Shown one piece after another: positions 2,946 to 62,479 of a stretch of 64,000 nt of DNA. This stretch comes from Trypanosoma brucei (lineage: Eukaryota). Position 1 is the first letter of the stretch, and every line of letters begins with the position of its first letter. The notes under the pieces are model-generated. The model saw only the letters and a list, made by a program, of their open reading frames with translations. It was not told where the DNA came from and made no database searches. The position numbers and the translations under genes are program-made. The stretch covers positions 32,001 through 96,000 of the forward strand of contig AE017150.2 in assembly GCA_000002445.1 (NCBI GenBank), written 5' to 3'.

Positions 2946-3797
2946 CAAACACAAACACATACAAATAAACAACCAAACATTTTTAAATGTTGTTGTGAAA
3001 CGAAAATTGAATCACGGAAAATTGTGGGGCGCACACGTAATGGGCACCATGAATGCCTCTTTGGATATTCCTCTATGGATTTTCACCAGCATCATCAACT
3101 TACTTTTTGTGTAAAAAAATAATAGAAACAAGACAGAACAGAAAAAAGAAATAAAGGTACAAATGCATTAATAAACCCAACTCCTCAGCAGGAAATCAAG
3201 AACAGGAAGCCACGAAAAGCGTATGGCACATATGATTTTCACCTCTCAGTTACTTAAGGTGGATCGCATGATTTACCCACCTTCTAAGAACACACCCTCC
3301 GAGAGGCCCGATTAAAAGAAAAAAAAACGCTATGACGGTTGAAAAGACGTTTTTCATAAACCTTCACTTTATACGTGAGGATGCATGAATAAACAATGAT
3401 AACGATGAGAATGCTAACGGAAACAATGACGAACCGTGAGGATCCTAGAAAAAAAAATAAAATAAAATCATCACGTACCTTCGCAGTAGGGAAACTTAAT
3501 AAATAACAAAATATAAATATTCCCTACACAGAGGTATAGGGAGTGTTCGTCAACTTCGTAATGCTAATCAAAAAGCCTTCAAATGTATCGATCATTCGTG
3601 TAGTCAATCAAATAAGAAGTAACATGTACTACACGCACAAAAGCACACTTATAAAGCCTACAAACCCACTTGCCCCCTTTTAGAGAATACCACTCTCTAG
3701 TCAGTGATAGGAGAGGTGATATTAAAAGTATTCCCTTTATAATTATTTCTGACTCATCAATTCGTTGCAACATAACATAACATGCAAAGATGTTGCA
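2946..3797. repeat. Module D_A, copy 1 (~850 bp 3' flank of A-type genes).
   Basis: Shared with 28526-29398, 33916-34765 and 58776-59627. Confidence 0.8.
3256..3283. other. Perfect 7-bp inverted repeat (aaggtgg ... ccacctt) with a 14-nt loop, ~520 nt 3' of the A-type stop codon. Conserved in all four D_A copies.
   Basis: aaggtggatcgcatgatttacccacctt read directly from the sequence. The same string occurs in D_A copies 2-4 near 28857, 34225 and 59105. Confidence 0.5.
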
Positions 3798-6167
3798 TCA
3801 GGCAGCGGGGCCACCAGCAATAGCGTTTGGTTCATCCTGGGTGATCTCCTTAACAATATTCCCTTCCATCTTCACTTGAAACTGGTTGATTCTATTCCAC
3901 AACTCTGTAGTATAATCGCCTCTGCCCCCAACTGGTTCGCACTTCTGCCTCTCCTCGATTGGCTTGCTGTCACTGTACTGTATGTAAATCAGTTCCCATT
4001 TCAAGTTTCTTGCGAGCTCATCCCATTCACCAAACAATTTTTTCATTGCCTTGATAAACTTATCTACCTTCGCTCGTGTCGTGTGATGCGTTGGTGCCAC
4101 TGTCGCCTGGAGCAGAACAATTGTTGTTGCGGTGATCGCCCTTCCTTCTCTATCAACAGCTGGCTCAGTTACAAAGAAAAAGGCGTCCACAACGGGGAAA
4201 TTTCCCTGTACAGGTCGGTAGAAGCACCCGACCTCAATGTCTTGGCCTGTCGTTTCGGGGTTAAACTGACGAAGTGAAGTTGGAACACGTCCCACGGCAT
4301 TACCACTTGCCAGAACGGATACATTTGAATCCATTTCTTCTCCAACGCGAGGGAGATACCGCAGGTGCGTCACAATCGTCTGCACAACATTTCCCATCGT
4401 GAAGGCATATACGCCCACATTTTCAAATTCATCAGCGGCCCGCTCTTCTTTCCCACGAAAAACCTTTCGAAGGTAATTGTCTCGCATACATGCTGTGTTC
4501 GCCCACACTCTCAATTTCTGCTCAATATCAATGGAAACAGCTCTGTTTCTGCATTCTTCTCCATTCTCAGTTACAACCCGGACCAACTTAGCTAACATGT
4601 AAGTAGTCCCGTCCTGGCGCCATTGAACTCGACTATTCAGCACCTTCATGTAGTGACTATCATCGCCTCTACTGATTTCTGCCAGTGCCTCATTTATTTC
4701 TCTAACGCGGCCCTTGTAGCGTTTTTCACCTTCCAGTACTTGGCGGGCCAGTGGGCCCACCTTCTTAATCCATCCCAATGTTTTCTGCCATTCATTCTCA
4801 AGGTTTATGATGTGAGCTTCGGTGATTTTACTTTCCTCCAACTTCGACAGCCGCCTCCACGCAACCGCAGCCTTCAGTTCCACCTCTTCATAGCAATTGA
4901 TGCAAAGGAACTCGCAACCCCGTGGTTCCTTCCAGTCTTTGTAGTTATTTGGATCTGGAGATGTCAACACAATTACGGGCCACGCTCCCGGCAAGTCTGC
5001 GGGTATGGGTTGGTGCCTGTCTTTCCAAAAGTCGTATATAATGTAACCAAGAACTTTTTCAACAACGAAGGCCTCAACAGCATCCAATCCATCTTTTTCT
5101 TTTTCATAGAATACAACCTTTCCCGGATGATCGTTTGTCGCCCTGAAGAAAATATATGCCCTACCCTTCACAAAATAAGCGATATTCCGCAACAGCTCCG
5201 AATCGTAATGCAGCAACCTTTGAAGCAGAAACGAGCCAACACCAAATGATTTCCCAATACCTGGAGTGCCAACGAGGACGCAAGGAATCTGTTTTTTATT
5301 CACGCCTGGCCCTAACCACAAATCCAGCCTGTGCTTCACGAGATACCACACTCTCATTACCTCTCGACGAATGTACACATCCCCGTCAAACACGTAGTCT
5401 CCTGGTTCTTCCGCTTCCTCTTGAATTGCATGTTCCGGAATGCTGAAAGAGTTATACGGCCAACCCTCCTGCGAGGTGAGCACAGCAATCTCTAAATTAC
5501 CGTGACGAGGCAGTGGGTCGCACAAGTCATAAGGCGTGTGACTGACATTCACCTCCTCTTCTGTCCACAACTCGGGCTCGCCGTCACTATTACCCACCAC
5601 CTTCATGCCAAGAGGTAAATCATTGTGACCCGACTCCACATAACCCCATGTCGCATTGTATATGGATTCATATACTCCTTTCAGTTCGACACCATCAGCT
5701 GTTTGGTGAGCTCGTTCCCTTGCTTCTTTGGCAATGCGCAGTGCACTGTCCAACTTTGTCGCTGCCACGGGACCAACAAATTCCCTTATTTGCGCTGTTG
5801 CATTTTCTTCCCATTGGTGAATGTCTTCAATCCTATTACGAGGCAGATAAATAACTGCCCTCAGTAATTGAAACTCATCAAGCCGCTGTATCCTTCCTAG
5901 AAACCCGGCATTCACAATATAATCCTCCGGGCTCTGAACAAAGACACCCACTGACACATTAGAAGTGCCGAGGGTTTCACCGAAGTGATGATTCAAAAGG
6001 TCATGCAATTTCATATCCCTCAAACCCGCAAAGCGTTGAAGCAATACATCTTCAATAGAACTATTCATCGTCCATGTTGGTCCCTCTTCATCCCCGCGCA
6101 GTCTCTTGAGAAAACGCCTTGCCGCATGTAAGCCATCAGTATAGAAACGCCGCATTGAATTCCACAT
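3798..6167 (-). CDS. RHS-like P-loop NTPase, subfamily A, copy A1 (789 aa from ATG of MWNSMRRF). The ORF-track extension to 6254 begins at a GTG and runs through the polypyrimidine tract.
   Basis: The ORF is 2.4 kb. Walker A GTPGIGKS is at ~5244-5273 and Walker-B-like LGYIIYDF at ~5022-5050. It is near-identical to copies at 29399..31768 and 34766..37135. A polyY+AG tract lies immediately 5' of the ATG on the gene strand. Confidence 0.8.
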   Translation of the reverse strand: MWNSMRRFYTDGLHAARRFLKRLRGDEEGPTWTMNSSIEDVLLQRFAGLRDMKLHDLLNHHFGETLGTSNVSVGVFVQSPEDYIVNAGFLGRIQRLDEFQLLRAVIYLPRNRIEDIHQWEENATAQIREFVGPVAATKLDSALRIAKEARERAHQTADGVELKGVYESIYNATWGYVESGHNDLPLGMKVVGNSDGEPELWTEEEVNVSHTPYDLCDPLPRHGNLEIAVLTSQEGWPYNSFSIPEHAIQEEAEEPGDYVFDGDVYIRREVMRVWYLVKHRLDLWLGPGVNKKQIPCVLVGTPGIGKSFGVGSFLLQRLLHYDSELLRNIAYFVKGRAYIFFRATNDHPGKVVFYEKEKDGLDAVEAFVVEKVLGYIIYDFWKDRHQPIPADLPGAWPVIVLTSPDPNNYKDWKEPRGCEFLCINCYEEVELKAAVAWRRLSKLEESKITEAHIINLENEWQKTLGWIKKVGPLARQVLEGEKRYKGRVREINEALAEISRGDDSHYMKVLNSRVQWRQDGTTYMLAKLVRVVTENGEECRNRAVSIDIEQKLRVWANTACMRDNYLRKVFRGKEERAADEFENVGVYAFTMGNVVQTIVTHLRYLPRVGEEMDSNVSVLASGNAVGRVPTSLRQFNPETTGQDIEVGCFYRPVQGNFPVVDAFFFVTEPAVDREGRAITATTIVLLQATVAPTHHTTRAKVDKFIKAMKKLFGEWDELARNLKWELIYIQYSDSKPIEERQKCEPVGGRGDYTTELWNRINQFQVKMEGNIVKEITQDEPNAIAGGPAA

Positions 6168-6199
6168 TGCTAATGCCCTATTGTCTCGTTGTCTAGCAA

Positions 6200-6236
6200 C
6201 TGCAAAATTAAAGTAACGTATGAGGAAAATAATAGT
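6200..6236 (-). promoter_or_regulatory. Putative trans-splice acceptor signal for A1: a polypyrimidine tract followed by AG (gene strand tattattttcctcatacgttactttaattttgcag), ~35 nt 5' of the ATG.
   Basis: Reverse complement of 6200-6236. The same tract precedes A2 and A3. This is the pattern used for spliced-leader addition in trypanosomatids. Confidence 0.4.
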
Positions 6237-6254
6237 GTGTAAATAATGTAACAC

Positions 6255-8335
6255 AATATCAAATGTAATAGAGCAAGATAATGTTTATTCACTATAGTTT
6301 GTATAATATGATATCATAATGTATTTGGTATTGAGAGGAACAATTTCAAAATATAGCAGCTGTAAATAAATATTTCCCTTGCTTCATCATCATGTTCTAA
6401 AAATAATTAATTTCCTGCATCATTCTTTCTAAACCATATATAATATGGAAACAAAAAATATTACTGCCTCATATACATGCATCAACACTACGTATATATA
6501 ATCAATATTTAAAGAGAGTCAAATTCTATCAATTAAAATCAAGTAAAACAAAAAACAAAAAAATTTATGGATATTAATGAAGCGAAGAAAAAGAGTATCG
6601 GCACAACACATAGATATATACACACATGAATACACACCACACAATTGCTTCTTTATTTATCCTCCCCATTTTTACAATTCATAATATTCACTTGCATTGA
6701 ATAAACTCATTGAAAATATAAATCACCTATCCCCTCCCCCGTGTATTCACTTACTTCCAAAGGAGAATATTAAATAATGTCTGTAGGACAGGTAAAAAAA
6801 AAAAACTGATAGTCTTTTTGCATCAGATAACCAGAGAGTATTTCTGTTTACTTTCATAATAAACAAAAACATTCTTTCACCTTCAGTTAAAATAAAATTG
6901 ATTTACTTGCCTCCTTACTGTTCACAACCATCAACAACTAATTCAGCCCCACATATTCACATGTATTTTATGTGCCATCGTTGTTTGATTTATTCACACA
7001 TCTTCCATGATGGTGATGATACAACATATGAAAAATTATTGAAATACAATTAATACAATTATTTGAGGAACCCATGAAAGACTATCATAACATATCTTTT
7101 ATTTTCCCTCCTTTCATTTACAAAAATTAAATATGTAATGAGACAATTCCCTTTCAGTACGTGTCCACACTTATTGTATCATCATTGTAAGTTTCCTATT
7201 GCTCACATACACAGAGCTATTGGAACAACAAAAACATAAAACAACACATCTAAACAACTTGATAAAATATATAATAAATAAATAAAGGTAATAAAGAGAA
7301 TGAGCGTGAACAGACAGATAATAAAATGAAACACGTCTCGTACTTTCCTTATAAATATTCAATAGTTGGCGGATTACAAATAAAAACAATTACACATTAT
7401 AGAAAGGAAAGGATATAATTACATTATACACCTGCATGTGGATATGTAACAGTGAGTCATAGTAGAAATAAATTGTCTAAACACAATAGTTATGGAAGAT
7501 AAAATAATTCAAAATATCAATAATATTATTCTATCAACATTCCCTTCCTTCTCCATTAAGTTTTCAATGGATTTAAATAATAATTCACATAATCCCATAC
7601 ATATGTTATGACGGGTATTGCATGCAGTACAATTTAAAGGAAGTGAAACTCATATAACATTTTCAAAAAAAAAAGGCATTGAATGGTTGTTTGCTACCAT
7701 CAATTACATTTCCAATGCCTAATTACACTTTTGTATGCATGAAGGAAGTTACTGATGATAACTTTGACATGCTCGAGAATCCATAACACAAAGCGACTGC
7801 TGCATGCAATAAAAAATAAAAATATAAATAACATCCGAATTCATTTACTGACAGATGAGTGCAATTCATTCATCCAAACTTCATAGCTGTAAACATAAAC
7901 TCGTTGCTGCCAATAGGAAATAATCCCGCATAAATATTGAGTATCTGAAAATGATAGCAACGGGTTTCCATTTTTGAAATATATGCATAAACTACATGAG
8001 GTATATGAAGCCATATTGGTAAAGTGTCACTACACATGTTGCAATTTACTATCAGAAGTGTCTGCCTTATTTTATTTCTTGTGTTACTGTAACTCATGAG
8101 TATTATTCATTATTCTTTACAATACAACTGTAAGTCATTTTGCATTTTTTTATATTTCCTTATTCTCTCATACTGGAAGTATTCCACATATGAGATTCCT
8201 CAATATCGTTCACAAATAAAAATAATTTTATTTACTTCTGCATTCAGTTTCTTGTGCAGCAGTGTGTGTACTAATCATCCATAAAGTTTTTAATTTGCCA
8301 AATACATCATTACGAAACTATTTTCATACACATGC
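6255..8335. repeat. Spacer module U, copy 2.
   Basis: Same sequence blocks in the same order as the other U copies (e.g. agagtcaaattctatcaattaaaatcaagtaaaac, atgtctgtaggacaggtaaaaaa, catccgaattcatttactgacagatgagtgc). Confidence 0.8.
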
Positions 8336-9084
8336 ACAAACAAACCGTTGGGACAATATCTTTGAGGAATTTCCTTCACTATATTTGCAGTTCAGTAGTA
8401 ATTAAAATACACTTTTTGTATAATTCAACACATGGTGGAATTGCAAAGAAATGTGATGGTACTTATAATCAATAAGTTCCCAATTTTCCTCACATGGTCT
8501 CTTTTCATGCCTTTCCACACATATATAATTCACAGAGAATTACTGCAATATCCTTCATATGCTTTCAGGATTCCATATGTCACAATACAAATAATATACA
8601 TTTACACATATATATAATTTGGACAGCATATTGCTTAACATATAAATTATCACAAACCTATGATATTACACTCCTCCTAAGAATAATAGAATCAAATCAT
8701 TTCTATTTTGCATCATTACATGAAGCTTTGGAAAAGAAAAAAAAAGAATCAAACAAAAGGTAATGTAAAGAACACAGTTTCATAATACAGATTATAACTT
8801 GTTTGTGAATTTCAGATGCAAACACAAAATGTTCAAACAGTAAAACAGTAAAGGATAGTACTGGTGATGTAAGCACAAATTAATCAAAAATAGAAACATA
8901 AATAAAATTGAAACTTATAAAAACACAAATATATATGATACAAATATTTACCACATATTATAATTCGCCACCCTCACACTTGAATTAGAAAGAGTACATA
9001 ACACACATATGTGGTAAAACTAATACAACTCGAGTATACGTATGTGCCATCTTCATAACATAATCATTCTAATATTTACTCAGT

Positions 9085-9114
9085 ATGTGTGTCTGTGTGT
9101 GTGTCTGTGTGTGT
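9085..9114. repeat. TG-rich microsatellite (gtgtgtgtctgtgtgtgtgtctgtgtgtgt) inside the L module. It recurs in other L copies and is length-variable.
   Basis: Read directly from the sequence. Counterparts are at ~40053-40082, ~18771-18796 (TATG/TG) and ~49805-49820 (shorter). Confidence 0.85.
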
Positions 9115-11229
9115 AGAAATGATGAAATGTAATTGTAACAAATCAGGCACAACACAAACAAAATATATGAATTATATTATTCTCTAAAAAGTAGAAGAAT
9201 AAAAATCAAGAAATATTACGCAGCTTTTCTCACAAGTAATTTTGTTTCTGTATATAACACGACAGCTGACAACATTAAACTCTCAATTCCATAATATCTG
9301 ACACCTGAAGTGATAATTAGCAGCGGATGCCTTTAACAAAAAACAACAGAAATAACAACATCAAAGCATGTTTTGAAAGCTTAAATAAACTTCCTCATGG
9401 ATAAACCATTTGTACGAAGTTTGAGTGCCAAGTTGGAGGAACAAAGAAAAAATAAAAAAAGAAGAATTAAATGGTAAAACAATTGCGTGTGATATAACTA
9501 AAGGATTTGTTAGGCACTACACTCATTAAACTCCAGTTTCATAAAAATACTGCAAGGCATAATATTTACTGCTTTACCGGTTATGTGCCTCCAGCAAGCA
9601 ATAATAAATACTTCGAGTATTATTCAATTTCTGATGCTATGAAGTGTGTAATAAATTAGTGCGGGAGCAAAATATTCAAATGTTGGTGTTCACTTCAAAT
9701 TATAACCTCTGCACTATGAATGTCTCTCGATGTTTATAATTTGAGAGAGCAAAAGTGACGGCGCTATTACTTATTTCTTCCAGTTCATGAATACATACAC
9801 ATATTTATACATATATAATCAGAGGTGACACGCAAAAGCGTTTAAACATCAGGCATGAACATCTTTCCATTCAAAGTAAGACGATACAATAAGGTAAGTT
9901 TAGGATGAAGTGAAGGTATCATAATGTTAATATCTTCCTTCAAGCGGAGGATTCAATTCAAATAGGCGTACTTCACAAACAATAGTAAAATAACTGAGAA
10001 AACTTATATCACTTAATCGTTATTTCCTTCAATTCTTATTTTGAATCGCTCTGTACCGTCACACCTTCAATAAAGTATATAGTGACGCATTTCATACATC
10101 CTCCCTAAGCCATCTCTCATAGTCATTAGCTCTCAACAGCAATAATAACAAATAATGAATAGTTTAGTTCTTACCTTCCCTTTTTTACTACCCACAAGAA
10201 AGATATACGAAATAATTATCATACTGAATAAACAGTAGGCGTTCCTCATTATCCTACACAAAATATGAATTGAAACGATAATTTACTAACGGAGCGGAAG
10301 TGTCTGAAAGCGTCTTTAACTCGTCTCCTGTGCGGGGCGAAGAGGGTTGTGTTGTGTGGGCTTTCTAAAAATTTCACTCTCTTGCAGACAGCTGTGTAAA
10401 TAAACGGGGAGTACAGGTGTGTTTAGAGAAAGATAACCGTACAAAATAATACTCTGCACTCCTATGACCAAAACAACCATTCATAATGCAGGCTTTCAAA
10501 ATACACGATATCATCTCAACAAATTGTAATTTTTTTTTGCATAATGTCCTCCAGAAGACAGAACAACAGATGACACAGTTAAATAACACATGACAAACAA
10601 GGAATATAACCGCACATCCTCAGCAGTAAATGTTTCAGTTTCTCCTTTAAAAAAAAAAAAGAAAAATAAAACAGTTTCACACGTGTGGTCCAAAAGCTGC
10701 ATCAGCCAATACAATATCTTGACAGCTTGTCACGCAGTCTTGCCTCAAGAAGAAAATAAATCATTCATCTCTGCTTTCCTTAGTTGATAAATGAGATCCC
10801 ATGCTGTGTTAACTCCCGTCTCCATTCAAAAAGTTGACTCAACGTTATGACGAGGCAGTGACCAAAAACAATCCAAATGCAATTCTAAATTTCTTCATAT
10901 TACGTTTTCAGTTTTATTACACATTTCCCCAACCATTCCAAGTACTAACAGGAATAATTTGGTTCTATAATAATGCATGTGTTTTCTACAGCTCTTTCAT
11001 TTTGTTATGATCCGCACAAAAATTATATATGTGGTTGTTGATTCGTCCTGTCAATCAAAGTAACAATCATAATAATTAATTTTCCCCTTTTCTTCATTTT
11101 TTCTATTAGCACATGTGCACCTTGGTGAGATCACTTTCACTCATTTGCACTGATTGGTCAACACTATTTAGTTCGTTATTCAACACACTCCCTTACATGT
11201 CCTCCTCTCACCATTTATAACCCACACGA

Positions 11230-13814
11230 GCAGCATCAAATATAAATTGTGAAGAGGTATGAGATCACAAGGAGCTCGCTCTCATTGAGAAGGTTGGATG
11301 CGTCATATATATATAATCATGTAATCCCTTTCCATTTCAACAATACGCAAACCTCAACTGCGGAATCGACTTTGAATGAGTTGACCTCGTCAGCATGAAA
11401 CGGGGCCCGCCAAGTGGCATGAACATTAATCTTATCAGTAAACATGTGTTTGAGGTGTTGGTAATAAATGGGGTCAAAGAAAACATAAGTGCGTATCATC
11501 TTCCCCGTTATGCCCGAGTGGAAAATATACATCATCTCCGTGAAGATAATTGTATCCATGTTGTATCAATTCCTCATCCAGCTCTTCATCCTTATCAGTA
11601 CCCAAACGAAGTGCCATCGCCTAACTTTTTCCGTGAATGCACTCACACCTTTGAGCTAACGAGTTCCAGCAACTTTGCAACTGTCATACGGCTCGGGAAT
11701 CCATGAGAATTTATGATCATATCTGTGCAAATGCCTTTACTCATTGAAGGGCATGTTAACACACCATCAGTCATGAGATCCACTACTCCCTCCAGCCAGC
11801 GCCGTGAGGAAAACTTATTTCAGACCTCGGGACCGCGAACTTCTCTCGTAGTAACTTTAACTTTATTGTTCTACATCCATTGATATATCCGAGTCACTGG
11901 AAGGTGAGAGATGAACACATTTGGTCCACAACAGCAGGCTGAGGGTATTTATTATATTCAAGAAAATTAGGTCTTGGTTCCTTGAAAGGCACGGGAGTGT
12001 ATTTGTTTACAAAAATATCAAACTGACAAACAGCCGCACCTTTACTACTGGCAATACCATCACTACTAAAGGCATTGTGTCTCGCAACATTCCAATCTGT
12101 TGGAAGAATTATATCATACATACTCACCGTTGGGAAGTCTTTCCAGTTCCATCTCATGCTTACAAAAAACAACATAGCACCCATAGCCACAATTGAGCGA
12201 ACTGCGGTTGTGTACACCTTTGCGTCTTCAATATTGTAACCTCTATAGCTCATAATGCATACCATCGTATTAATTCCTGCACCTAATATTTCGTAGTTGC
12301 TTAGGTTCATAGCCTTCGTCCGGCAAAGGGACAGTTGAGAGTAAGCACTCAACATAAGTACTGTGTCCATTTCTAATGTACTGATTATACGCAATGGTTC
12401 CAACAGCTTGCTTGCCCATGGCTGACTGTAATGTGTTTCGTGCAAATTGATTGTGATGTGGAAAGGAAAATAATGCTAGCGACAACTCCAAGTGAGCCTC
12501 GTGTACTGCTCAATGTCTTTGTGGTGAACTGCTATAAGAGAGTCATTCGCTTCGTCATATAAGTCAATGAATTCCACAACAAGCCCTCAACTAAAATATC
12601 GTTAATCGATCACTTGCTTGAACTCAAGTTATCCAGATGTTAAGAAATTACAGCGTGTTTCCCATCGCAAACGAAAACATACAACCTCACGATCCTTCCG
12701 CCAACACAAACAATTTGAACACTCTTCTGACGGTCATTTATCGCAATTGAAACGTAAGGATGCAAGCGGCCTGTGTTCCTCAGGGTTCGTAATACATCCC
12801 GACACAAACGGCTCATGTATCGATAAACGCACATCAGCACTTCATTGAGGAAAACTGTGTAGTATTTAAGAAATTCGTTAAGACTGATATAATCTATTTC
12901 CTCCACTCCAATATTGTACGCATCCGCGTGTAAACAAACAAATTATCCATGTCTAGTGTTACCTGACTAAGAATGGCAAAATTATTAACCAAACAGCAAC
13001 AACTTTCACCCTCTGGGGTATCGCAAGGAGGGATATACACCATTCCCCATTGACTTGAATAGAGAAATAATGATCCGCACATGTGGGTCAATAGACGAGG
13101 CCATGGTCACTCCACTGCTGCCGTTACATATGATCACTGCATGGTTTTTATATCAATGTTGATGATGATGTGGGATTTGCTGCTGGAGGCAACCAACAAC
13201 ATAAGTTTAAGGTTGCCACGTGTGAAGAGAGGCCCAACTGCCAACCCTCAACCAGGATAACAGAAGTGATTATAAGGAAAGAGAAGACAACATATCATAG
13301 TATGTTTACCCACCGACAAATAACTGAAGAAAGAGAGAGAGAGAGAAAGAGAGGAAAATAGAAACAATCACGTCACCTGCTGCGCGTCTGCGAAGAACAC
13401 CATCAAGAGCTGCTCCATAACTGCAACCATAACTAACATGTATAATATAATTATAACAGCTCGTATATGAAACAGCACATCCAGTAACTGCTTCTAATGT
13501 TTGCATATTTCACTCCGTCACAATCTCTCTCCCATGACACCTACTGGAAACACAACTCAGAGGAGTTATAGTTGAGGCATGTTTCCAATACGCCCTCTCC
13601 ACCACGGATGGCAAAGAAGCAAAAAGTACCATTACATTTTTGTTCCTTTTATCATTGGTCTATAGATCCCTATCTCTACACGGATGGAAAATTTAGATTG
13701 TATAAATGAAAAGAAGATGTGAAGAGTTAGTGTAGTATAATCCAATTCTTTAGTTAGTAACAGCACAAATGAAAACAAAACGTTACAATGTTTTCTTACG
13801 TCCGTCGATAACAT
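11230..13814 (-). pseudogene. Degenerate, frameshifted, 5'- and 3'-truncated pseudogene of the second-largest subunit of a multisubunit RNA polymerase (RPB2/RPC2/RPA2 family). It corresponds roughly to residues ~390-1050 of yeast RPB2.
   Basis: Minus-strand ORF fragments align to conserved RPB2-family blocks in the right order. 12894..13091 has WGMVYIPPCDTPEGESCCCLVNNFAIL, matching [24 protein letters not shown]. 12640..12906 has LRTLRNTGRLHPYVSIAINDRQKSVQIVCVGGRIVRLYVFV, matching [41 protein letters not shown]. 12270..12491 has [22 protein letters not shown], matching [22 protein letters not shown]. 11894..12445 has [22 protein letters not shown]...[21 protein letters not shown], matching [22 protein letters not shown]...[20 protein letters not shown]. 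11317..11559 has VFFDPIYYQHLKHMFTDKINVHATWRAP, matching [26 protein letters not shown]. Frames change between blocks, and about 100 aa including the RHGQKG block is missing. Confidence 0.7.
13327..13352. repeat. (GA)n microsatellite inside the RNA polymerase pseudogene region.
   Basis: agagagagagagagaaagagagg read directly from the sequence. Confidence 0.85.
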
Positions 13815-14166
13815 TATTTCTGTCTTTCTCTGTGCCCCTTAAGATTACGATGTGGCTTAACTCCAGTTACGCGTTAGCCGATAAAATACTACTTTTGCTA
13901 TTCCTTAGTCGTCTTCATTTCCACTTCCCTTCCCTCACCTCCGGCACTCAAGTGAATTATCACGTCCCTTTCCTTGCAGCAGCTGCGGAAGCTCATTACT
14001 GGTGGACAAACAACACACTTGGAATGGCGCAACGGGGCACTTCAAGTTGTGATCATAAACCAAACCAGGTACAAAAACGAACCCGCTCCTCCTAATGGTT
14101 GGTTCCCTCCTCTTTAAGCATTTGTCACTCTTAACAGCAACGCCGTGCACTGCTAAAAAAAAACAA

Positions 14167-16743
14167 TTACGCGTCTTCACCTCCTTCCACGTCGTCCATT
14201 GCTACGTCACCTCGCCCCTCCACAACCTCTTCACGAGCGCGCCGCCTTCCCGCCAGTCCCATCAATGCTGGTGCATCTCGCATGCCAGATTCTCGGCGAT
14301 ATGCCTGAATTAATTCCGCTTGCATCGTTTCCTTGAGTGTCACTTGGAATTGGTCGATGGATTCCCAAAATGTTTGCGGTCCCAGAGGACCTCCGTCCTC
14401 ACCTCCAGCTCTATCGGGAGGTCCTTCGCAAAGTTGCCTGCGGGTTATCGTGCCACCGTTAACCGAATTAATGTATATCATTTCCCAAGCCATGTTACCC
14501 GAAAACGTGTTCCAGTCGGAAAAATAACTTGCTATGTTTTCTCGGAACTTCTGCACCTTATCCGTAGTGGTGGGGTGCCTCTCCGACTTGGTTACTTGTA
14601 AAAGCACAGCTATATTTGGAGTGGTCGGTGGCGCTGTTCCGTCACGGTTTCTCCTGAGCCGCCCCTCAACGAAAAAAAAGCCATCCACCACGGGTTCATT
14701 GCCTGTGGCAGGGAGGTAGAGAACCATGTGTTCACAGCGTTCAATTGGTCGCTGTTGGGCCGCAGGTAAGGCCTTCTGCCCAATGAGTCTCAACTGCTGA
14801 GGAGCCATGTCGTTCAGTATGCTTCGACGGTCAGCTATTTCTCTGCCTCGTCGCAGGTATTTCAAGTTGTTTGCGATAACTTTAAAAACTCGAGGGAAAA
14901 GAAGCGAAAGCAACGCAAGCCTTTCAAAAGCGTTGGCCCCGACACTCTCGTCTGACATTATAATCTCCTTTGACGTCATCTCCACAATAAGAATGCCAAA
15001 TAATGTGCAAATCAACATATTCCAAATGTTGACAGAAAGCGATCTGCAACGATATGATTCGACATTGACAGTCCCAGAGCTTACCCGCACTATCTTCACC
15101 AATTTGTGCGTTACCACATCATTTTGCCAGTCCGAAGATTTTCCAATAATCTTATCATATTTCTTTCCGTTTTCGCTATCGAGCTGCCTAGCTTCTTTAC
15201 GCACACATTCCAGTCGTGCGTCATAGTCAGGGGCTGAGAAAACAAAACGAGGCAATGGACCAACCATGTCAATGCGCTCTTCCACAATTTTCCACTCGCT
15301 TTCAAGCTCCTCCATTAACTGCTGCCTCGTTTTGTCGCGCGGCGCCTCCTCCGAAAGCACACACAGCTTTTTCCATGCCACAAATGCCTTCATGTCGCGC
15401 ACATCATCACAGTTTATAATAATATGGCGGTCTCCCCTATTCTTTGCCCAGTGCTCGTAATGTGCCGTATCCGGAGAAGTGAGGATAGTTACACCCCAAA
15501 AAGGTGAAGGAAGATTCTGCGGTGGAGTTTCATTCTTTTCACTGATATCAACAATTACGTGCCCCTTCTTTTCGTACTTTACTGCATCTATGGCCTTAAC
15601 AGCAGCTTTCACGTGTTCATACTGCACAACCCTTTCCTCTTCTCCGGGTTTCTTGTTATATATGAGGAAGGCGTTCCCGTCTGTGAAATATGCAACAACA
15701 TCAAGCATTCCATCATTGAAGTGAAGCAATGAATGAAGCAAAAATGATCCAACTCCATACGACTTTCCAATACCAGGTGTACCAATAACAATATGTATCG
15801 GTGGTCTGTGGGCTGTGTCATTCAGCCACCATGTTTGCAGCCCTCGTTGGATTATATACCACACGCGCATGATTTCACGACGGATGTATACGTGGTTGCA
15901 AATTGCTCTGCATTTCTTCCTTAAGCACAGTGAAAACCCGTTGTATGGCCAACCCTTCTCCGAAGTGAGAACGAAAATCTCCAAACCATTGGGTCTCTCC
16001 TCAATCTCTGCATCAACATTCGCAGGGTCAGGAGTTATATCCACCTCCGCTTCGGTCCATATGTGCTGTGGTTTTCCATCAAACACTTTCATGCCAAGTG
16101 GCTCTTCATCATAACCCGACATTACATAACTCCATTTTGCATTATAAATGGAATCATACACTCCTTTCAGTTCGACAGCACTAGCAGCTGTTTGAGCAGC
16201 TCGTTCCAATGCTACATTGAGTGCATCATTCAACATGTTAGTGACAATAATCCAAAGCCGCTCTCCATCTCTCAGTCCACGAATATTCACCTGTAACCCG
16301 GCCTTTACTACCTCATCTGCTTGTTGCCAGCGCTGAAGATTCAATATTCCCTCTCTGAACAACAGGGGGTAAGCAGTAGCAAAAACTTGGTACACTTGAT
16401 ACTCTGTTGTCGCGAATATTCGATTGAGCGCATTAACGTCATTAATATACTCTTCAGGTTCCAGTACGAACACAAACATTGATACATTATTTTCTTCATT
16501 CACATTATATCTTCTGCCAAAATTACGCCTCAAAAAATCATTCAACGTCACATTTTCAGGATGAGCCCGACCATTCAGCAAAACTGCTTCAACGCTGCTG
16601 AAAAGACCCCATCGTGGTTGGTTATTATTCTCCACTCGTTGCTGGACTGCTGGAGGTTCCGCATCGTTACGCGCAGCCTCCTCATTTTCTCGTCTCCTTC
16701 CCTCAATGTCACCCCTTCCTTCAATAGGAACCTGTTGATTCAT
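14167..16743 (-). CDS. RHS-like P-loop NTPase, subfamily B, copy B1 (858 aa, MNQQVPIEGRGD...).
   Basis: The ORF is 2.58 kb. It carries IVIGTPGIGKSYGVGSFLLHSLLHF (Walker A), GHVIVDI (Walker B-like) and VLTSPD. The central region is homologous to types A and C, with divergent termini. Confidence 0.8.
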   Translation of the reverse strand: MNQQVPIEGRGDIEGRRRENEEAARNDAEPPAVQQRVENNNQPRWGLFSSVEAVLLNGRAHPENVTLNDFLRRNFGRRYNVNEENNVSMFVFVLEPEEYINDVNALNRIFATTEYQVYQVFATAYPLLFREGILNLQRWQQADEVVKAGLQVNIRGLRDGERLWIIVTNMLNDALNVALERAAQTAASAVELKGVYDSIYNAKWSYVMSGYDEEPLGMKVFDGKPQHIWTEAEVDITPDPANVDAEIEERPNGLEIFVLTSEKGWPYNGFSLCLRKKCRAICNHVYIRREIMRVWYIIQRGLQTWWLNDTAHRPPIHIVIGTPGIGKSYGVGSFLLHSLLHFNDGMLDVVAYFTDGNAFLIYNKKPGEEERVVQYEHVKAAVKAIDAVKYEKKGHVIVDISEKNETPPQNLPSPFWGVTILTSPDTAHYEHWAKNRGDRHIIINCDDVRDMKAFVAWKKLCVLSEEAPRDKTRQQLMEELESEWKIVEERIDMVGPLPRFVFSAPDYDARLECVRKEARQLDSENGKKYDKIIGKSSDWQNDVVTHKLVKIVRVSSGTVNVESYRCRSLSVNIWNMLICTLFGILIVEMTSKEIIMSDESVGANAFERLALLSLLFPRVFKVIANNLKYLRRGREIADRRSILNDMAPQQLRLIGQKALPAAQQRPIERCEHMVLYLPATGNEPVVDGFFFVEGRLRRNRDGTAPPTTPNIAVLLQVTKSERHPTTTDKVQKFRENIASYFSDWNTFSGNMAWEMIYINSVNGGTITRRQLCEGPPDRAGGEDGGPLGPQTFWESIDQFQVTLKETMQAELIQAYRRESGMRDAPALMGLAGRRRAREEVVEGRGDVAMDDVEGGEDA

Positions 16744-17305
16744 TTCACTCTCTGAATAATAATCTTAATTGAGTGCGTTGTGTTATTTCCTTTCTTTGTA
16801 ACATAAATTTTAAAAAAGGGATAAAAGATGAGAGAATTTAAAATAGATACATTTCTAAACCAAAGCAAATATACAATCAATGAATATCAGGAATTAATAT
16901 GGCAGGTGGAAACTATTTATTGAAATTAGAATTCAATACAAATCTTATCATGTGTTAAGAACTCACAGCAACTTAAGCACAAATAAGGTATGACAGTACG
17001 AATAGACATTTCTGTTTGGAGGAAAGCTCAAACAACAATTCCCATTCAGAGCACACAATCATTCCAGAAAAAAAAAATATACTTAGATATATTTATTTAT
17101 GAAAAAGCAAAAAAAATAAATGTGGCATTGCCATAAAAAACAGCATATAATAGGTTTAGTGATAAATCATGCAAAACGTAGAATCCTCGGGTGCATACAG
17201 AAAAGTGCCTTACTTACCTTACAAAATTAAAAATATACCAAAAGTAAAAATAAATATAAAACATTATCTTCACAAATCAAACCAGACACGTATTAAGCAA
17301 GAGAA
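16744..17305. repeat. Module U_B, copy 1 (~560 bp immediately 5' of B-type genes).
   Basis: Shared with 47725-48291, 57464-58032 and 62084-62479. Confidence 0.8.
16780..16850 (-). promoter_or_regulatory. Putative polypyrimidine tract and AG acceptor region 5' of B1 (gene strand ctctcatcttttatccctttttttaaaatttatgttacaaag).
   Basis: Reverse complement of 16790-16835. Conserved in front of B2 and B3. Confidence 0.3.
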
Positions 17306-18055
17306 AATAATTCATATAATCTCATACATATGTTATGATGGGCATTGCATGCAGTACAATTTAAAGGAAGTGTAACTCATATAACATTTTCAAAAAAAGG
17401 TATTGAATGGTTGTTTGCTACCATCAATTACATTTCCAATGCCTAATTACACTTTTATATGCATGAAGGAAGTTACAGATGATAACTTTGACATGCTCGA
17501 GAATTCATAACACAAAGCGACTGCTGCATGCAAATAAAAAAATATAAATATAAATAACATCCGAATTCATTTACTGACAGATGAGTGCAATTCATTCACC
17601 CAAACTTCATAGCTGCAAATATAAACTCGCTGCTGCCAATAAGAAATAATCCCGCATAAATATTGAGTATCTGAAAATGATAGCAACGGGTTTCCATTTT
17701 TGAAATATATGCATAAACTACATGAGGTATATGAAGTCATATTGGTAAAGTGTCACTACGCATGTTGCAATTTACTATCAGAAGTGTCTGCCTTATTTTA
17801 TTTCTTGTGTTACTGTAACTCATGAGTATCATTCATTATTCTTTACAATACAACTGTAAGTCATTTTGCATTTTTTTATATTTTCTTATTCCCTCATACT
17901 GGAAGTATTCCACATATGAGATTCCTCAATATCGTTCACAAAATAAAAATAATTTTATTTACTTCTGCATTCAGTTTCTCGTGTAGCAGTGTGTACACTA
18001 ATCATCCATAAAGTTTTTAATTTGCCAAATACATCATTACGAAACTATTTTCCAC
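17306..18055. repeat. Partial U module (distal ~750 bp only), entered from U_B at an internal point.
   Basis: Matches U positions equivalent to ~2205-2945. The join is at aataattcatataatctcatacatatg. Confidence 0.7.
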
Positions 18056-20192
18056 AAATAAACAAACAAACATTCCATTGGGACAATATCTTTGAGATAT
18101 TTCCTTCACCATATTCGCAGTTCAGTAGTGATTAAAAGAAACTTTTCTGTATAATTCAACACATGGTGGAATTGCACAGAAATGTGATGGTACTTATAAT
18201 CCATAAGTTCCCAATTTTCCTCACATGGTCTCCTTTTTATGCCTTTACATCCTTATATAATTCACAGAGAATTACTGCAATTTCTTTCATATGCTTTCAG
18301 GATTCCATATGTCACAACACAAATAATATATACATTTACACATATATATAATTTGGACATAATATTGCTTAACATATAAATTATCACAAACCTATGACTT
18401 TACACTCCTCCTAAGAATAATAGAATCAAATTATTTCTATTTTGCATCATTACATGAAGCTTTGGAAAAGGAAAAAAAGAATAAAACAAAAGGTAAAGAA
18501 CACAGTTTTTTAATACAGATTATAACTTGTTTGTGAATTTCAGATGCAAACACAAAATGTTCAAACAGGGAAACAGTAAAGGACGTTACTGGTGATGTAA
18601 GCACAAATTAACCAAAAATAGAAACATAAATAAAATTGAAACTTATAAAAACACAAATATATATGATACAAATATTTACCACATATTATAATTCGCCACC
18701 CTCACACTTGAATTATAAAGAGTACATAACACAAATATGTGGTAAAACTAATACAACTCGAATATACATATGTATGTATGTATGTGTGTGTAGAAATGAT
18801 GAAATGTAATTGTAACAAACCAGGCACAACACAAACAAAATATATGCATTATATTATTCTCTAAAAAGTAGAAGAATAAAAATCAAGAAATATTACGCAG
18901 CTTTTCTCACAAGTAATTTTGTTTCTATACATATATATATACATATATAACACGACAGCTGACAACATTAAACTCTCAATTCCATAATATCTGACGCCTG
19001 AAGTGATAATTAGCAGCGGATGCCTTTAACAAAAAACAATAGGAATAACAACATCAAAGCATGTTTTGAGAGCTTAAATAAACTTCCTCATGGATAAACC
19101 ATTTGTACGAAGTTTGAGTGCCAACTTGGAGGAACAAAGAAAAAATAAAAAAGAAGAATTAAATGGTAAAAGAATTGCGTGTGATATAACTAAAGGATTT
19201 GTTAGGCACTACACTCATTAAACTCCAATTTCATAAAAATACTGTAAGGCATAATATTTACTGCTTTACCGGTTATGTGCCTCCAGCAAGCAATAATAAA
19301 TACTTCGAGTATTATTCAATTTCTGATGCTATGAAGTGTGTAATAAAGTAGTGCATGAGTAAAATATTCAAATGTTGGTGTTCACTTCAAATTATAGACT
19401 CTGCACTATGAATGTCTCTCGATGTTTATAATTTGAGAGAGCAAAAGTGACGGCGCTACTATTTATTTCTTCCAGTTCATGAATATATAAATATATTTAT
19501 ACATATATATAATCAGAGGTGACATGCAAAAGCGTTTAAACATCAGGCATGAACATCTTTCCATCCATTTAAAGTAAGACGATACAATAAGGTAAGTTTA
19601 GGATGAAGTGAAGGTATCATAATGTTAACATCTTCCTTCAAGCGGAGGATTCAATTTAAATAGGCGTACTTCACAAACAATAGTAAAATAACTGAGAAAA
19701 CTTATGTCACTTAATCGTTATTTCCTTCAATTCTTATTTTGAATCGCTCTGTACCGTCACACCTTCAATAAAGTATATAGTGACGCATTTCACACATCCT
19801 CCCTAAGCCATCTCTCATAGTCATAGCTCTCCACAGCAATAATAAAAAATAATGAATAGTTTAGTTCTTACCTTCCCTTTTTTACTACCGACAAGAAAGA
19901 TATACGAAATAATTATCATACTGAATAAACAGTAAGGTTTCCTCATCATCCTACACAAAATATGAATTGAAACGATAATTTACTAACGAAGCGGAAGTGT
20001 CTGAAAGCGTCTTTAACTCGTCTCCTGTGCGGGGCGAAGAGGGTTGTGTTGTGTGGGCTTTCTAAAAATTTCACTCTCTTGCAGACAGCTGCGTAAATAA
20101 ACGGGGAGTACAGGTGTGTTTAGAGAAATATAACCGTACAAAATAATACTCTGCACTCCTAAGTCCAAAACCATTCATAATGCAGGTTTTCA
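18056..20192. repeat. Partial L module (proximal 2.1 kb). It breaks off into unique sequence at ~20192.
   Basis: Matches L1 8336-~10480. It diverges after gcaggttttca. Confidence 0.7.
18927..18950. repeat. (TA)n/(TACA) microsatellite in a partial L module. Counterparts are at ~40215-40240 and ~49960-49982.
   Basis: Read directly from the sequence. Confidence 0.8.
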
Positions 20193-23100
20193 TTAAAAAA
20201 ATAAGTAGCAGTAGTAGTAGTAAGGAGAAAGCTATTGTTTTTTCTCACTCCTGCTGCCACGTACATCATGCGTAATACAACAGTTTCCATTTATTCTATG
20301 GTAGATTTTTTCACATAGCAAGGGATACTCGGAATTGCTGTATCACTTTCGTTGTCCCAGCCATACTGTCTGCTTTTCATGGTTAAACTAAAACTCCAAT
20401 GAAATCACATTGTTGTGTCATCTTTTGCGAGTCACCAATAATGGTTGTGCCCCACATTCCTCCATGTTCGTAACTATTTTGTTTCCACGACATTTAACCA
20501 CGTCATGTGCCTCACACTGATAAATATGTTGCATATCCATGTTTGAGTCCTCAATCTTTCAGGGGTCGCCTGCTGCAGCCTCACGAGAAGTGCATGTCCT
20601 GAAAAAACTCTTGTGATGGTGTGTAAAATTCCAGGAGTCCATTTTATTAACTGATGGGGAGTCGATTCAAATTCACTAATTCCTCATTTTTGCTAACGTA
20701 TCGGAACCCCAGCCGAATATCTTCAGGCAACTTCACTTGAGAGAGGAATGACTTTAGATCAAACAATGCCACCGACTGGTCATGGAGAGTATTTAAATAC
20801 TGGGAAAAGTGACCCAATGGGGCATATGCCTCATAATCATCCCTGCTCTTTTTAGCCTTTGGTCATGCAATAAACCAACACCTTCTTCCAAATCTGTGTT
20901 TCCTCCATCACAAATAATGGCACACAACCCATCCTGTCGTATGTCTCTCTGAAACTGGGCCAATGATACGCGGCTGCTTCATTATTTGGGCATACTTTTC
21001 TACAATGCGCAATTCTGACTCCTTCTTTGATACTTTCTCTCTTTCTTTCTTTCTGCATCATCTGTGCTATTCATGATGCTCCAAACCTCATCAAATCGTT
21101 TACTCGCTGCTTACATCATCCTCTGTCAAATCCACGGAAGGGAAATCATTCCCACATTCATTTCCTATTGGAGAGGTGAAGTCTTTTTTTTTTCTCTTCC
21201 CGTGAGGTCACCTTCATTTCCCCTTGTGAGTGTCAAGGAATGCTGTGCAATCGATAATTTGGGAAGATATTCACCGTTATAAGTCCCGGCTTCCCTCACA
21301 CTGAGGCCGCACATTTCTTTCAATTGTATCTTACATCAAAAACATTAAAAGAACCGGCTTGCTTACGGAAGCTGTCACACATCTGAGATACCACACTGTG
21401 CCTCGTGGAAGTTCTATTGTGTAGATATGCTTTCCCAATTGTATTAATAATATGTTGTCAATGTCGTGTTCCATTGCAACTACTTCCGCTGCGCGTGTCA
21501 GCAGTGCTCTTCTCTTTATGGGATGTTCTATCATTACGTATGGTCTTTTCAGTATGGTGTCACTTTTCCCCTTTGTGGTAATGGCTATGAACTTCTTCCT
21601 CTTTCCTCCAGAGGTTCCTCCCTATGACTTTTCTCACACTGGCAATATCCTTTTCCCAGTTGATATTTACGCATCGTGTGACTCTGTGGGTATCGCTTTT
21701 GAATTTCTTTGGAAGGTTCCCTCGAAAAAAAATCCACTATTGAGGCTTGCCTGCCGTGTGAGTGTGGTATAACATTTTTCTCTTTTTTTTTGGAGCTGTG
21801 TAATTTCTTTTTGCCATCGCATGGCTGGGTGTAATTCAGGTCACTACTCATATTGCGACTGGATACCACTCTGGACGGAACTTCCTGCAAGATATTATCG
21901 AATCCCCATTACAACATGTGTTGTGTTTGTTTGATGGGTTTACCTGTTACCGTATTGTAAAGATGGACCCAAAAACAAAATCCGCGTCGGTGTGTCCAAT
22001 AGAGATGATGGAAGAGTTCTCCTGTACTGAAATAGCAATGCTTTTTGCGAGTCGTAAACTTACAACAACAAATAGAAGTGCAGTTGCATCCTATGCTGGA
22101 ATGCGGTAATGATTTTCCGCCAATGCATAAAAACACCGCATGATGAATTCCCTATCGCTCAAATGTTTTAGTCCTCAGCCACATTCACTTTGCTATTCTA
22201 TTGGCTCCTGAAACCAATGTCATGATGTACGGATGGCTTTGTGTGGGAACTGCAATAAAAATAAGAATAATAATAATAATAACTCCTTTCACCAATGAGT
22301 TTACTATTGGTTGTAAAAGTGCTCTTGGTGCCACTCCATTTTTCTTTTCTTGAGTCCCCAGCTGCTGAAGACCTGTTGTATTTTTTAAAAAGAGTGATGC
22401 ACCGTTTTATTCCCCACCCCTTTCAGGTGAATTTCTCCTGCACGGTTGATACTTTCCCATTGTAGAATGTTCCTCAAGGTGTTTCCTTTGTGAAGCTTTG
22501 GTTATGCTATAATTAAAGACCACTCAACTCCATGCTTCCGGGACCTGCTGTTGCATTTATTCCCCTTTAGTTGCTGCAAATTTATTCATTTGACAAGTTG
22601 TAGTGCAATACTTCACTTGACCATATGTGTAACATCGTGTCTCGTTGCTTTGTAAAAACTCAAAAAGAACACATCAGGTGATATTCTTCTGTTCTTACTT
22701 CGTACATTCACATCTCTTCCCGTCAGTTCGGAAACTCCCACACAAACTCACCACTCTGTGAAGATTTGTAATTTCCGTTAGTGATGGGCGTACTGAAGTG
22801 GGAATGTTTGGCACTTCAAAAACTAAGTTTTTTAAACTTACACCTTCCTTCTTGCATAGAGCTTCATTTCGAGAGTAAAAGAATAGTTGAGTATCATGAG
22901 AAAACATAAGCCCAAATATTCTCAACGCAAGCTTTCAATAAAAACAAACACATTAAGATGGTTCAGTGAACACATGCAGGATAATCCCTAGCAAAGGTAT
23001 TATTCACACCCAATAAACAACTCAAACAAATAACACCAGCATACATATCGCAGACACATATAAGTTGCACCTGCACAAACAAATAAAGACTGCTGTGACT

Positions 23101-37135: not shown

Positions 37136-37222
37136 TGCTAATGCCCTATTGTCTCGTTGTCTAGCAACTGCAAAATTAAAGTAACGTATGAGGAAAATAA
37201 TAGTGTGTGAACAGTGTAACAT

Positions 37223-62083: not shown

Positions 62084-62479
62084 TTCACTCTCCGAATAAT
62101 AATCCTAACTGAGTGTGTTGTGTTATTTCCTTTCTTTGTAATATAAATTAAGAAAAGAATTAAGATGAGGGAATTTAAAATGGATACACTTATAAACCAA
62201 ATCAAATATACAATTAATGAATATTAGGAATTAATATGGCAGATGGAAACTATTTATTTAAATTAGGATTCAATACAAATCTTATCATGTGTTGGGGCGT
62301 CACGGCAACTTAAGCACAAATAAGGTATGACAGTATTAATAAACATTTCTGTTGAGAGGAAAACTCAAACAACAATTCCCGGTTACTTCACACCATGATT
62401 TCAAAAACAATAATATACTTACACATATATTTATGTATTGAAAAGCAAAACAAATAAATAAATGTGGCATTGCCATGAA
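62084..62479. repeat. Module U_B, copy 4 (truncated; identical to copy 3 over its length).
   Basis: 62084-62479 equals 57464-57859 base for base by eye. Confidence 0.8.

Follow-up and report, generated by a model that had tools for sequence, protein, structure and literature searches.

The RHS array covered by the window (the whole 64,000-nt stretch of Trypanosoma brucei DNA that was analyzed) carries, downstream of its subfamily-B RHS genes, repeated copies of a decayed gene for the second-largest subunit of RNA polymerase III, RPC2. This relic is very probably an unprocessed (DNA-level), non-functional pseudogene of RPC2, which subsequently decayed and was amplified together with the RHS-B unit. 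That a decayed polymerase gene for the second-largest subunit was co-amplified with the RHS repeat had been correctly recognized in the initial annotation, while its limits, its internal structure and its donor locus are revised below. The elements of the first relic-bearing unit are as follows:

8100-11218, minus strand: AT-rich proximal spacer downstream of the relic, GC about 0.30
11219-13058, minus strand: RPC2 relic copy 1 (blastn, tblastn, Pfam Rpb2 domains 3, 4 and 6)
13059-13417, minus strand: fragment of the chromosome-1 locus from upstream of RPC2 (blastn, 83.3% over 335 nt to positions 7563-7891 of the RPC2 locus sequence L001)
13324-13362, minus strand: polypyrimidine tract followed by AG, from the trans-splice acceptor region of the WD40 gene (sequence and locus alignment)
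13418-14166, minus strand: sequence 3' of the subfamily-B RHS gene (97-98.5% identity to both 44402-45150 and 54132-54880)
14167-16743, minus strand: RHS gene R2, subfamily B, 858 aa (Pfam RHSP, RHS_N and DUF7578)

Identity and parent gene of the relic

The T. brucei RPC2 gene has 1129 codons, of which ~482-1080 were colinear with the minus strand of 11219-13058; its protein matched each full relic copy with an E-value of 8.8e-155 in tblastn. Such a match is far beyond chance and not a product of low complexity; neither a low-complexity artifact nor an absence of RPC2 similarity, both considered beforehand, was encountered. At the nucleotide level, relic copy 1 was 82.8% identical to the RPC2 gene of T. 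b. gambiense (L001 11445-13239) over 1864 blastn columns, with 86.5% identity to functional RPC2 when only aligned bases were counted. All conserved blocks previously placed on the minus strand, colinear but in shifting frames, were recovered by six-frame translation. Pfam searches identified RNA_pol_Rpb2 domains 3, 4 and 6 in colinear order with E-values from 4e-4 to 5e-13, and each fragment reached or exceeded the gathering score of Pfam. A phmmer search against PDB likewise gave a significant match (E 7e-134).

Among the solved structures, the best scores were obtained with the yeast and human RPC2 subunits of Pol III (451 and 449 bits), as compared to 315 bits for archaeal Rpo2, 309 bits for Rpb2 of Pol II and 198/187 bits for RPA2/A135 of Pol I, and a Pol II or Pol I origin was rejected on these grounds. 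The named top database matches were all RPC2, with Trypanosoma RPC2 as the closest proteins: the frame-corrected relic protein had 76-77% identity to its T. brucei homolog, 71% to that of T. congolense and 70% to that of T. cruzi. Judged from these similarities, the relic belongs to the Pol III class, toward which the initial annotation had leaned, and the question of class is closed. The relic contained seven of the eight derived residues specific to T. brucei and none of the nine specific to T. congolense, indicating that it arose within the T. brucei lineage.

The product of the parent gene is the 1129-aa protein CAJ15945.1/XP_001218757.1. The working RPC2 gene is single-copy and located on chromosome 1; the functional sequence (P0240) is recorded on T. 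b. gambiense chromosome 1 and on a TREU927 contig. In TREU927, we take the array of the window to belong to chromosome 2 and the parent RPC2 to chromosome 1. In the T. b. gambiense chromosome 1 record, the functional gene is located at a distance of 4.7-8.1 kb from the beginning, which suggests that it borders an RHS array on that chromosome. The relic resembles its parent in the colinear codons ~482-1080 and in the shared T. brucei-specific residues; in contrast to the parent, it is truncated, lesioned, fused to a WD40 gene fragment and located in RHS arrays on other chromosomes.

Fusion junction and flanking sequences

The RPC2 homology ended at ~13058 and not, as initially annotated for a span of 11230-13814, further upstream. 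The adjacent 359 nt (13059-13417) corresponded to the upstream region of a different gene, comprising the intergenic region and the first ~46 codons of the WD40-repeat gene that neighbors RPC2. The ATG of this gene was located at 13202-13200 on the minus strand, and the tblastn match with the WD40 protein began at 13202. The remaining part, 13418-13814, had no polymerase homology, and the possibility that it contained the N-terminal part of RPC2 was rejected by tblastn.

Both blocks were colinear and co-oriented with the functional locus at ~83% identity, L001 7563-7891 corresponding to window positions 13417-13083 and L001 11445-13239 to 13057-11219. In the junction alignment, codon ~46 of the WD40 gene was fused to codon ~482 of RPC2 at the pentanucleotide TCAAT, with 3.5 kb of the parental sequence missing. 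TCAAT was present on both parental sides of the junction, making a 5-nt microhomology. The WD40 upstream fragment together with this junction points to a segmental duplication at the DNA level followed by a deletion: a flank of the parent locus was copied along with RPC2 in the same order and orientation, as in an unprocessed pseudogene.

Within the WD40 fragment, the polypyrimidine tract and AG at 13324-13362 were aligned with the same tract in the upstream region of the functional WD40 gene. They were intact-looking and situated ~800 nt beyond the stop codon of RHS-B; any role that they may have in the relic is hypothetical.

On the other side of the relic, a derivation of the proximal spacer from the downstream flank of the functional gene was considered and rejected, since the region 8336-11230 had no resemblance to that flank in blastn, nor did the whole of 8100-11218 match L001. 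A segmental DNA transfer is thus supported on the 5' side, because the WD40 upstream region was co-copied. The 13418-14166 flank likewise had no blastn match to the RPC2 locus.

Lesions and relaxed constraint

Relic copy 1 contained 25 small insertions together with a 23-nt deletion; six in-frame stops remained after frame correction, and frameshifts occurred approximately every 70 nt. Both ends were truncated, as had been noted before, the N-terminal 481 and the C-terminal ~49 codons of RPC2 being absent. The catalytic-cleft motif RHGQKG, initially believed to have been lost within a deletion of ~100 aa, was found in place but mutated to RRWLEG (wider block SRRWLEG); the change in this block is from KFSSRHGQKGVVG to KFSSRRWLEGVVD. 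The only sizeable internal loss was the 23-nt deletion, equivalent to ~8 codons. No full-length ORF with intact active-site-cleft motifs was therefore left, and the truncation, indels, stops and RRWLEG motif together make the relic a derivative of the Rpb2 family and not a functional member of it.

The substitutions relative to the parent were nearly even across the three codon positions (14.4, 10.6 and 16.0%), as were the differences among the copies (24/18/24, 21/19/25 and 22/17/25). GC-to-AT changes outnumbered AT-to-GC changes (164 vs 46), and the GC content was 41.5% in the relic vs 48.7% in the corresponding functional segment. As judged from these substitution patterns, purifying selection on the relic is absent and its constraint relaxed.

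The small indels of the relic were skewed 25:2 in favor of insertions, with a striking excess of small tandem duplications.

Copies within the RHS array

Three further copies were found in the window by blastn and tblastn, in agreement with the initial count of three full copies and one partial:

42203-44401, minus strand: relic copy 2 (RPC2 part ~42203-44042, WD40 part to 44401)
51942-54131, minus strand: relic copy 3 (RPC2 part ~51942-53783, WD40 part to 54131)
63031-64000, minus strand: relic copy 4, cut by the window end (equivalent to L001 12313-13239; blastn 82.2% over 970 nt)

In the RPC2 part, copy 2 had 99.95% identity to copy 1 and exactly the same indels. Copy 3 was 96.2% identical to copy 1 and had the same two breakpoints and 24 of the 25 insertions, one 1-nt insertion being absent, while copy 4 had the same 3' breakpoint and shared indels with the other copies. 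The copies differed from each other by 0.05-3.8%, as compared to 13.5% from the parent gene. The lesions common to all copies indicate that the decay preceded the amplification and that the relic had a single origin before it was multiplied.

The window contained eight RHS genes or pseudogenes of three subfamilies, and the relic always followed a subfamily-B gene, all four copies being co-oriented with the RHS genes as stated in the initial annotation. Directly upstream of copy 1 in the direction of transcription was R2, whose protein was 100% identical to an RHS protein of T. b. brucei TREU927 in a homology search and matched the Pfam families RHSP (E 2e-67) and RHS_N (E 2e-34), as expected for a unit of the RHS array. 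The 3' flank of R2 (13418-14166) was restricted to the relic-bearing units and occurred nowhere else in the window. The assumption that every long spacer contains the relic failed for 16744-23835, in which tblastn detected nothing similar to RPC2, even with a threshold of E<=10. This spacer shared only the proximal part, its positions 17826-20192 matching 8100-10498, and its remainder (20193-23835) had no Pfam match and lacked self-similarity as well as any resemblance to the RPC2 locus. Scans for Rfam families and tandem repeats yielded nothing.

The unit of RHS-B and relic, with the same junction, was also present on T. b. gambiense chromosome 11 (1.083-1.106 Mb), where the relic was ~3.6% divergent from the copies in the window.

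Alternative explanations

RHS genes are hot spots for insertion of ingi and RIME (PMC6393297), and the relic is truncated at its 5' end, as is often the case in retro-copies, both of which favor a processed pseudogene produced from RPC2 mRNA by the ingi/RIME machinery. However, the relic includes 359 nt of intergenic and 5' coding sequence of the neighboring gene in genomic order, and this WD40 upstream fragment could not have come from a mature, monocistronic, spliced-leader-capped mRNA. Furthermore, the relic breaks off at its 3' end within the coding sequence (codon ~1080) and has no A-run there, and the ORFs beside it showed neither reverse-transcriptase nor endonuclease domains. A processed origin is effectively refuted by the co-copied fragment, which reaches beyond any mature RPC2 mRNA, and is regarded as extremely improbable. 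The same very low probability is assigned to independent captures of RPC2 or to a functional paralogue that has diverged and encodes a truncated polymerase-like protein. The longest ORF, of 183 aa (11894-12445), does match Rpb2 domain 6, and similar fragments have been deposited as T. b. gambiense gene models; yet the depositors themselves labeled them 'hypothetical protein, unlikely', and a paralogue is contradicted by the dense frameshifts, the remaining stops, the destroyed cleft motif and the even distribution of substitutions over the codon positions. Independent captures are contradicted by the identical breakpoints and by the indels common to all copies.

A passenger origin might also be combined with a by-product role, if the relic were transcribed within the RHS polycistron and acted as a source of siRNA or antisense RNA on RPC2 or as a polyadenylation signal for RHS-B. 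Exact matches of 20 nt or more between the relic and functional RPC2 numbered 13, including seven of 24-31 nt, and RHS and ingi loci are the largest source of siRNA in procyclic T. brucei (PMC3447711), while the polyadenylation variant would be consistent with the conserved WD40-derived tract and AG ~800 nt past the RHS-B stop. Against such roles, the RPC2 part was no better conserved among the copies than the whole spacer (96.2 vs 95.4%), and the only pseudogenes named in the small-RNA survey were Tb927.5.290 and Tb09.160.3400, not this relic. A by-product role of any kind is therefore considered unlikely. The more specific proposal, that the relics are transcribed with the RHS arrays and that the 24-31-nt matches would feed small RNAs tuning RPC2 mRNA, is very doubtful; if true, small RNAs from the relic would couple the activity of the RHS/retroelement arrays to Pol III output.

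Proposed history

The preferred reading, a DNA-level pseudogene carried along by the RHS-B unit, would comprise four steps. A segment of ~5.7 kb, beginning in the intergenic sequence that precedes the WD40 gene and ending at RPC2 codon ~1080, would have been duplicated, the copy landing in the 3' flank of an RHS gene of subfamily B. The internal 3.5-kb stretch would then have been lost at TCAAT, joining WD40 codon ~46 to RPC2 codon ~482, although the order of these two events is deduced and not directly seen. The fusion would have undergone a long neutral decay, accumulating ~13.5% substitutions, 25 micro-insertions, six nonsense codons and a drift from GC to AT, before the RHS-B gene, the relic and the spacer were multiplied as one unit in the chromosome 2 array and on other chromosomes, presumably by unequal crossing-over, gene conversion or ectopic recombination.

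The passenger pseudogenes known from trypanosome subtelomeres, such as ESAG and VSG fragments, are similar in being DNA copies with a flank that were inactivated and co-amplified with a repeat unit. The relic differs from them in its parent, which is a single-copy essential gene of core transcription and not a member of a contingency family.

Previous records of the relic

The impression that the relic was unusual and had escaped annotation was not sustained, since fragments of it already exist as gene models in T. b. gambiense, with UniProt names given after their Rpb2 domains. The DAL972 models CBH17320.1 and CBH17321.1 (UniProt D0A6L9 and D0A6M0) are relic ORF fragments of 74 and 92 aa. They belong to the paralogous relic copy on chromosome 11, downstream of RHS-B, and contain Rpb2 domains 4 and 6, but are treated as separate 'hypothetical protein, unlikely' genes instead of one pseudogene. 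A literature phrase search for polymerase pseudogenes in RHS regions, in a collection without the 2003 papers on chromosomes I and II, found nothing.

The RHS region of T. brucei chromosome II is reported to span ~250 kb, and the abstract of the work describing it (El-Sayed et al. 2003) reportedly mentions truncated pseudogenes of RNA polymerase scattered among the RHS genes; these pseudogenes are almost certainly the same objects as the relics. That abstract is said to give no polymerase class, donor locus, WD40 fusion or junction. The relic is an ordinary genomic fossil that has reportedly been published already; the Pol III class, the donor locus, the WD40 fusion and the TCAAT junction were worked out here.

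Significance

The relic is dead and non-functional, a passenger of RHS array dynamics that contributes nothing to transcription, and it therefore matters little for transcription biology. For annotation, it is best represented as one pseudogene feature and not as several 'hypothetical' ORFs. As a fossil, it dates and orders events in the history of the RHS arrays: capture of a core gene segment from chromosome 1, a microhomology-associated deletion, a long decay and an amplification, with the unit spreading to at least two chromosomes. In addition, its ~1.8 kb of unconstrained sequence with a known ancestor provides a spectrum of neutral mutation for T. brucei repeat arrays, which is characterized by a strong GC-to-AT bias and an excess of small tandem-duplication insertions.

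Polymerase relic in the RHS array

The window contained RHS (retrotransposon hot spot) genes arranged head-to-tail on the minus strand, and a polymerase relic, consisting of a broken partial copy of a second-largest-subunit gene joined to a WD40-gene fragment, was always located after the RHS genes of subfamily B (R2, R6 and R7) together with a B-specific 749-nt 3' flank:

14167-16743, minus: RHS gene R2, 858-aa ORF, with Pfam RHSP, RHS_N and DUF7578
11219-13417, minus: relic copy 1, full
about 42203-44401, minus: relic copy 2, full
about 51942-54131, minus: relic copy 3, full
63031-64000, minus: relic copy 4, partial, interrupted by the window end

The initial annotation had counted three full copies and a partial one, which agrees with the three full copies and the one ending at the window edge. 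Its placement of the pseudogene in every long ("L") spacer was overstated: the long spacer at 16744-23835, which follows the subfamily-C gene R3, had no polymerase similarity in tblastn with T. brucei RPC2 (RNA polymerase III second-largest subunit) and had only its proximal AT-rich part in common with the relic-bearing spacer. Its distal 3.6 kb (20193-23835) was found once in the window, was of unusual composition (AT skew of -0.15 in 20001-22000), contained no ORF above 106 aa, and matched neither a Pfam family nor the RPC2 locus. The R2 protein was 100% identical to an RHS protein of T. b. brucei TREU927, the R2-bearing sequence being presumably TREU927 chromosome II.

Six-frame translation of the minus strand at 11000-14100 recovered all the polymerase blocks described initially, colinear and in changing frames, while separate inter-stop pieces matched the Pfam RNA_pol_Rpb2 domains 3, 4 and 6 with scores that reached or exceeded the respective gathering scores. 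The T. brucei RPC2 protein matched each full copy with an E-value of 8.8e-155 (tblastn), which, together with the Pfam matches, puts the similarity far beyond chance. The extent of 11230-13814 was too long, with the RPC2 part ending at about 13058 and the relic at 13417. The named top matches of the stitched relic translation in a homology search were Pol III RPC2 only, the closest being kinetoplastid, and against all solved structures the frame-corrected relic scored 451 bits with RPC2 of yeast and 449 bits with that of human, 309 bits with Rpb2, and 198 and 187 bits with Pol I RPA2 and A135, respectively. The class, previously left open with a lean toward Pol III/Pol I over Pol II, is thereby settled, by sequence similarity, as Pol III; the reading as a decayed second-largest-subunit gene amplified with the RHS family was right in kind.

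Donor locus and junction

A second homology search yielded full-length RPC2 proteins of kinetoplastids, and the T. brucei protein (P0240; CAJ15945.1 / XP_001218757.1; 1129 aa) was taken from the cluster of a T. theileri representative. In T. b. gambiense the functional gene sits on chromosome 1, 4.7-8.1 kb from the record start (locus L001, FN554964.1 1-18115; gene at L001 10001-13390); in TREU927 we take it to be on chromosome I. The L001 gene order on a single strand is PHO4, PHO4, DOT1-like, WD40, RPC2 and a 273-aa gene. RPC2 is the second called gene counting from the start of FN554964.1, and the final 4.7 kb up to that start had no RHS similarity.

Window 13057-11219 aligned with L001 11445-13239 at 82.8% identity over 1864 columns in blastn (86.5% at aligned bases), covering codons ~482-1080 of the functional gene. 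In the functional frame, the relic amino acids were 76-77% identical to RPC2 of T. brucei, with lower values for T. congolense (71%) and T. cruzi (70%), and the relic carried seven of the eight T. brucei-derived residues vs none of the nine T. congolense-derived ones, therefore descending from a T. brucei-lineage RPC2 after the split from T. congolense.

Window 13417-13083, which adjoins the RPC2 part on its upstream side, matched L001 7563-7891 at 83% (blastn), i.e., the 5' end of the WD40-repeat gene preceding RPC2 and the intergenic region upstream of that gene, with the WD40 start codon at window 13202-13200. Detailed alignment placed the fusion at about window 13058, joining WD40 codon ~46 to RPC2 codon ~482 with TCAAT at the join in both parental sequences and a gap of about 3.53 kb relative to the parental locus. 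This gap is either a later microhomology-associated internal deletion or was built so during copying. Since both pieces keep the order and orientation of the functional locus, the copy was made from genomic DNA; the same neighbor-gene sequence effectively rules out an mRNA-derived copy. On the 3' side the homology ended within coding sequence, at codon ~1080, and was followed by AT-rich spacer with no counterpart downstream of functional RPC2 (blastn vs L001). Segmental transposition of the locus, which had been suggested for the proximal spacer part, thus failed on that side (8336-11230 vs the functional flank was negative) and was supported on the opposite side, through the WD40 upstream region.

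Decay and amplification

Compared to the functional gene, the relic had 25 insertions, each 1-7 nt long and together adding 64 nt, one deletion of 23 nt, a doubtful 5-nt one at the 3' edge, and six in-frame stops left once the frameshifts were removed. The conserved KFSSRHGQKGVVG segment, within the ~100-aa stretch including RHGQKG wrongly described as deleted, was present as KFSSRRWLEGVVD, its motif mutated. Substitutions from the parent were nearly even by codon position (14.4, 10.6 and 16.0%) in a gene whose protein shows over 90% conservation across Trypanosoma, indicating no coding constraint; inter-copy differences were also even (24/18/24, 21/19/25 and 22/17/25). GC-to-AT changes numbered 164 vs 46 in reverse, with GC falling from 48.7% (functional) to 41.5% (relic). 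Judging from its sequence, the relic is dead.

Pseudogenes usually show a deletion bias. The indel spectrum here (11219-13058 and copies 2-4) was very one-sided, with small insertions vs only one or two deletions, and 14 of the 25 insertions were exact tandem duplications of neighboring bases. They were placed on the relic branch because, compared with the other RPC2 proteins of Trypanosoma, the functional gene is unchanged in length.

Both breakpoints were common to all copies, as was essentially the whole indel list (private: one 1-nt insertion in copies 1 and 2, and one 3-nt change in copy 3), and divergence among copies was 0.05-3.8% vs 13.5% from the parent gene; most decay therefore preceded amplification. 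T. b. gambiense chromosome 11 (FN554974.1, 1.083-1.106 Mb) has an 85%-identical RHS-B gene followed by a WD40-RPC2 fusion of the relic type. This copy (L002 13334-15537, FN554974.1 ~1.0965-1.0988 Mb) lies in an internal RHS cluster, adjoins a subtilisin-like (Peptidase_S8) gene, and is ~3.6% from window copy 1 and about as far from copy 3. From this copy, two ORF fragments were deposited as separate gene models, CBH17320.1 and CBH17321.1 ('hypothetical protein, unlikely'), with UniProt names following their Rpb2 domains. The course of events would have begun with the copying of a WD40-RPC2 segment of chromosome 1 at the DNA level, followed by internal deletion at the microhomology, neutral decay and then co-amplification with RHS-B units.

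The array also contained a direct duplication of ~18 kb (827-18773 vs 31807-49766, offset ~30.98 kb, 96.4% overall), of which about 10 kb (~3300-13300 vs ~34280-44280) was 99.5-100% identical, the flanks dropping to 82-95%, a pattern suggestive of a recent tract of gene conversion or a mosaic. The RHS-B proteins R2 and R6 were only 84% identical, yet their downstream spacers were 99.4% identical. RHS gene R8 (59628-61736) is divided by a frameshift into 347- and 349-aa ORFs, and the relic-bearing spacer to its right reaches it after only ~740 nt (61737-62477), missing the equivalent of 8100-10660, so that the 'L' spacers are not uniform. T. b. gambiense chromosome 11 keeps this arrangement at 95% (L002 6398-19143).

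Possible roles and significance

The relic is best explained as a functionless passenger of RHS array turnover. A by-product role, either as a source of siRNA on RPC2 or through a polypyrimidine/AG signal, is very improbable, even though the relic and functional RPC2 share 13 identical stretches of 20 nt or longer, of which seven are of siRNA size (24-31 nt), and a polypyrimidine tract plus AG is retained at 13324-13362 (minus), about 800 nt 3' of the stop codon of RHS-B. The survey that identifies RHS and ingi loci as a major source of siRNA did not single out the relic pseudogene (PMC3447711), and the relic is no better conserved among copies than the spacer around it. Every relic copy has kept this tract and the AG acceptor of the WD40 gene nearly intact; in trypanosomes, a tract of this kind could serve as the signal for trans-splicing the relic RNA and for polyadenylating the RHS mRNA upstream of it.

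Literature phrase searches gave no secondary mention of polymerase pseudogenes among RHS genes. El-Sayed et al. (2003, Nucleic Acids Res), in the abstract of their paper on chromosome II, reportedly mention a few truncated RNA polymerase pseudogene copies among RHS genes; on that account the feature would already be known. The present analysis contributes the assignment to Pol III, the identity of the donor locus, the WD40 fusion with its junction, and the relative timing.
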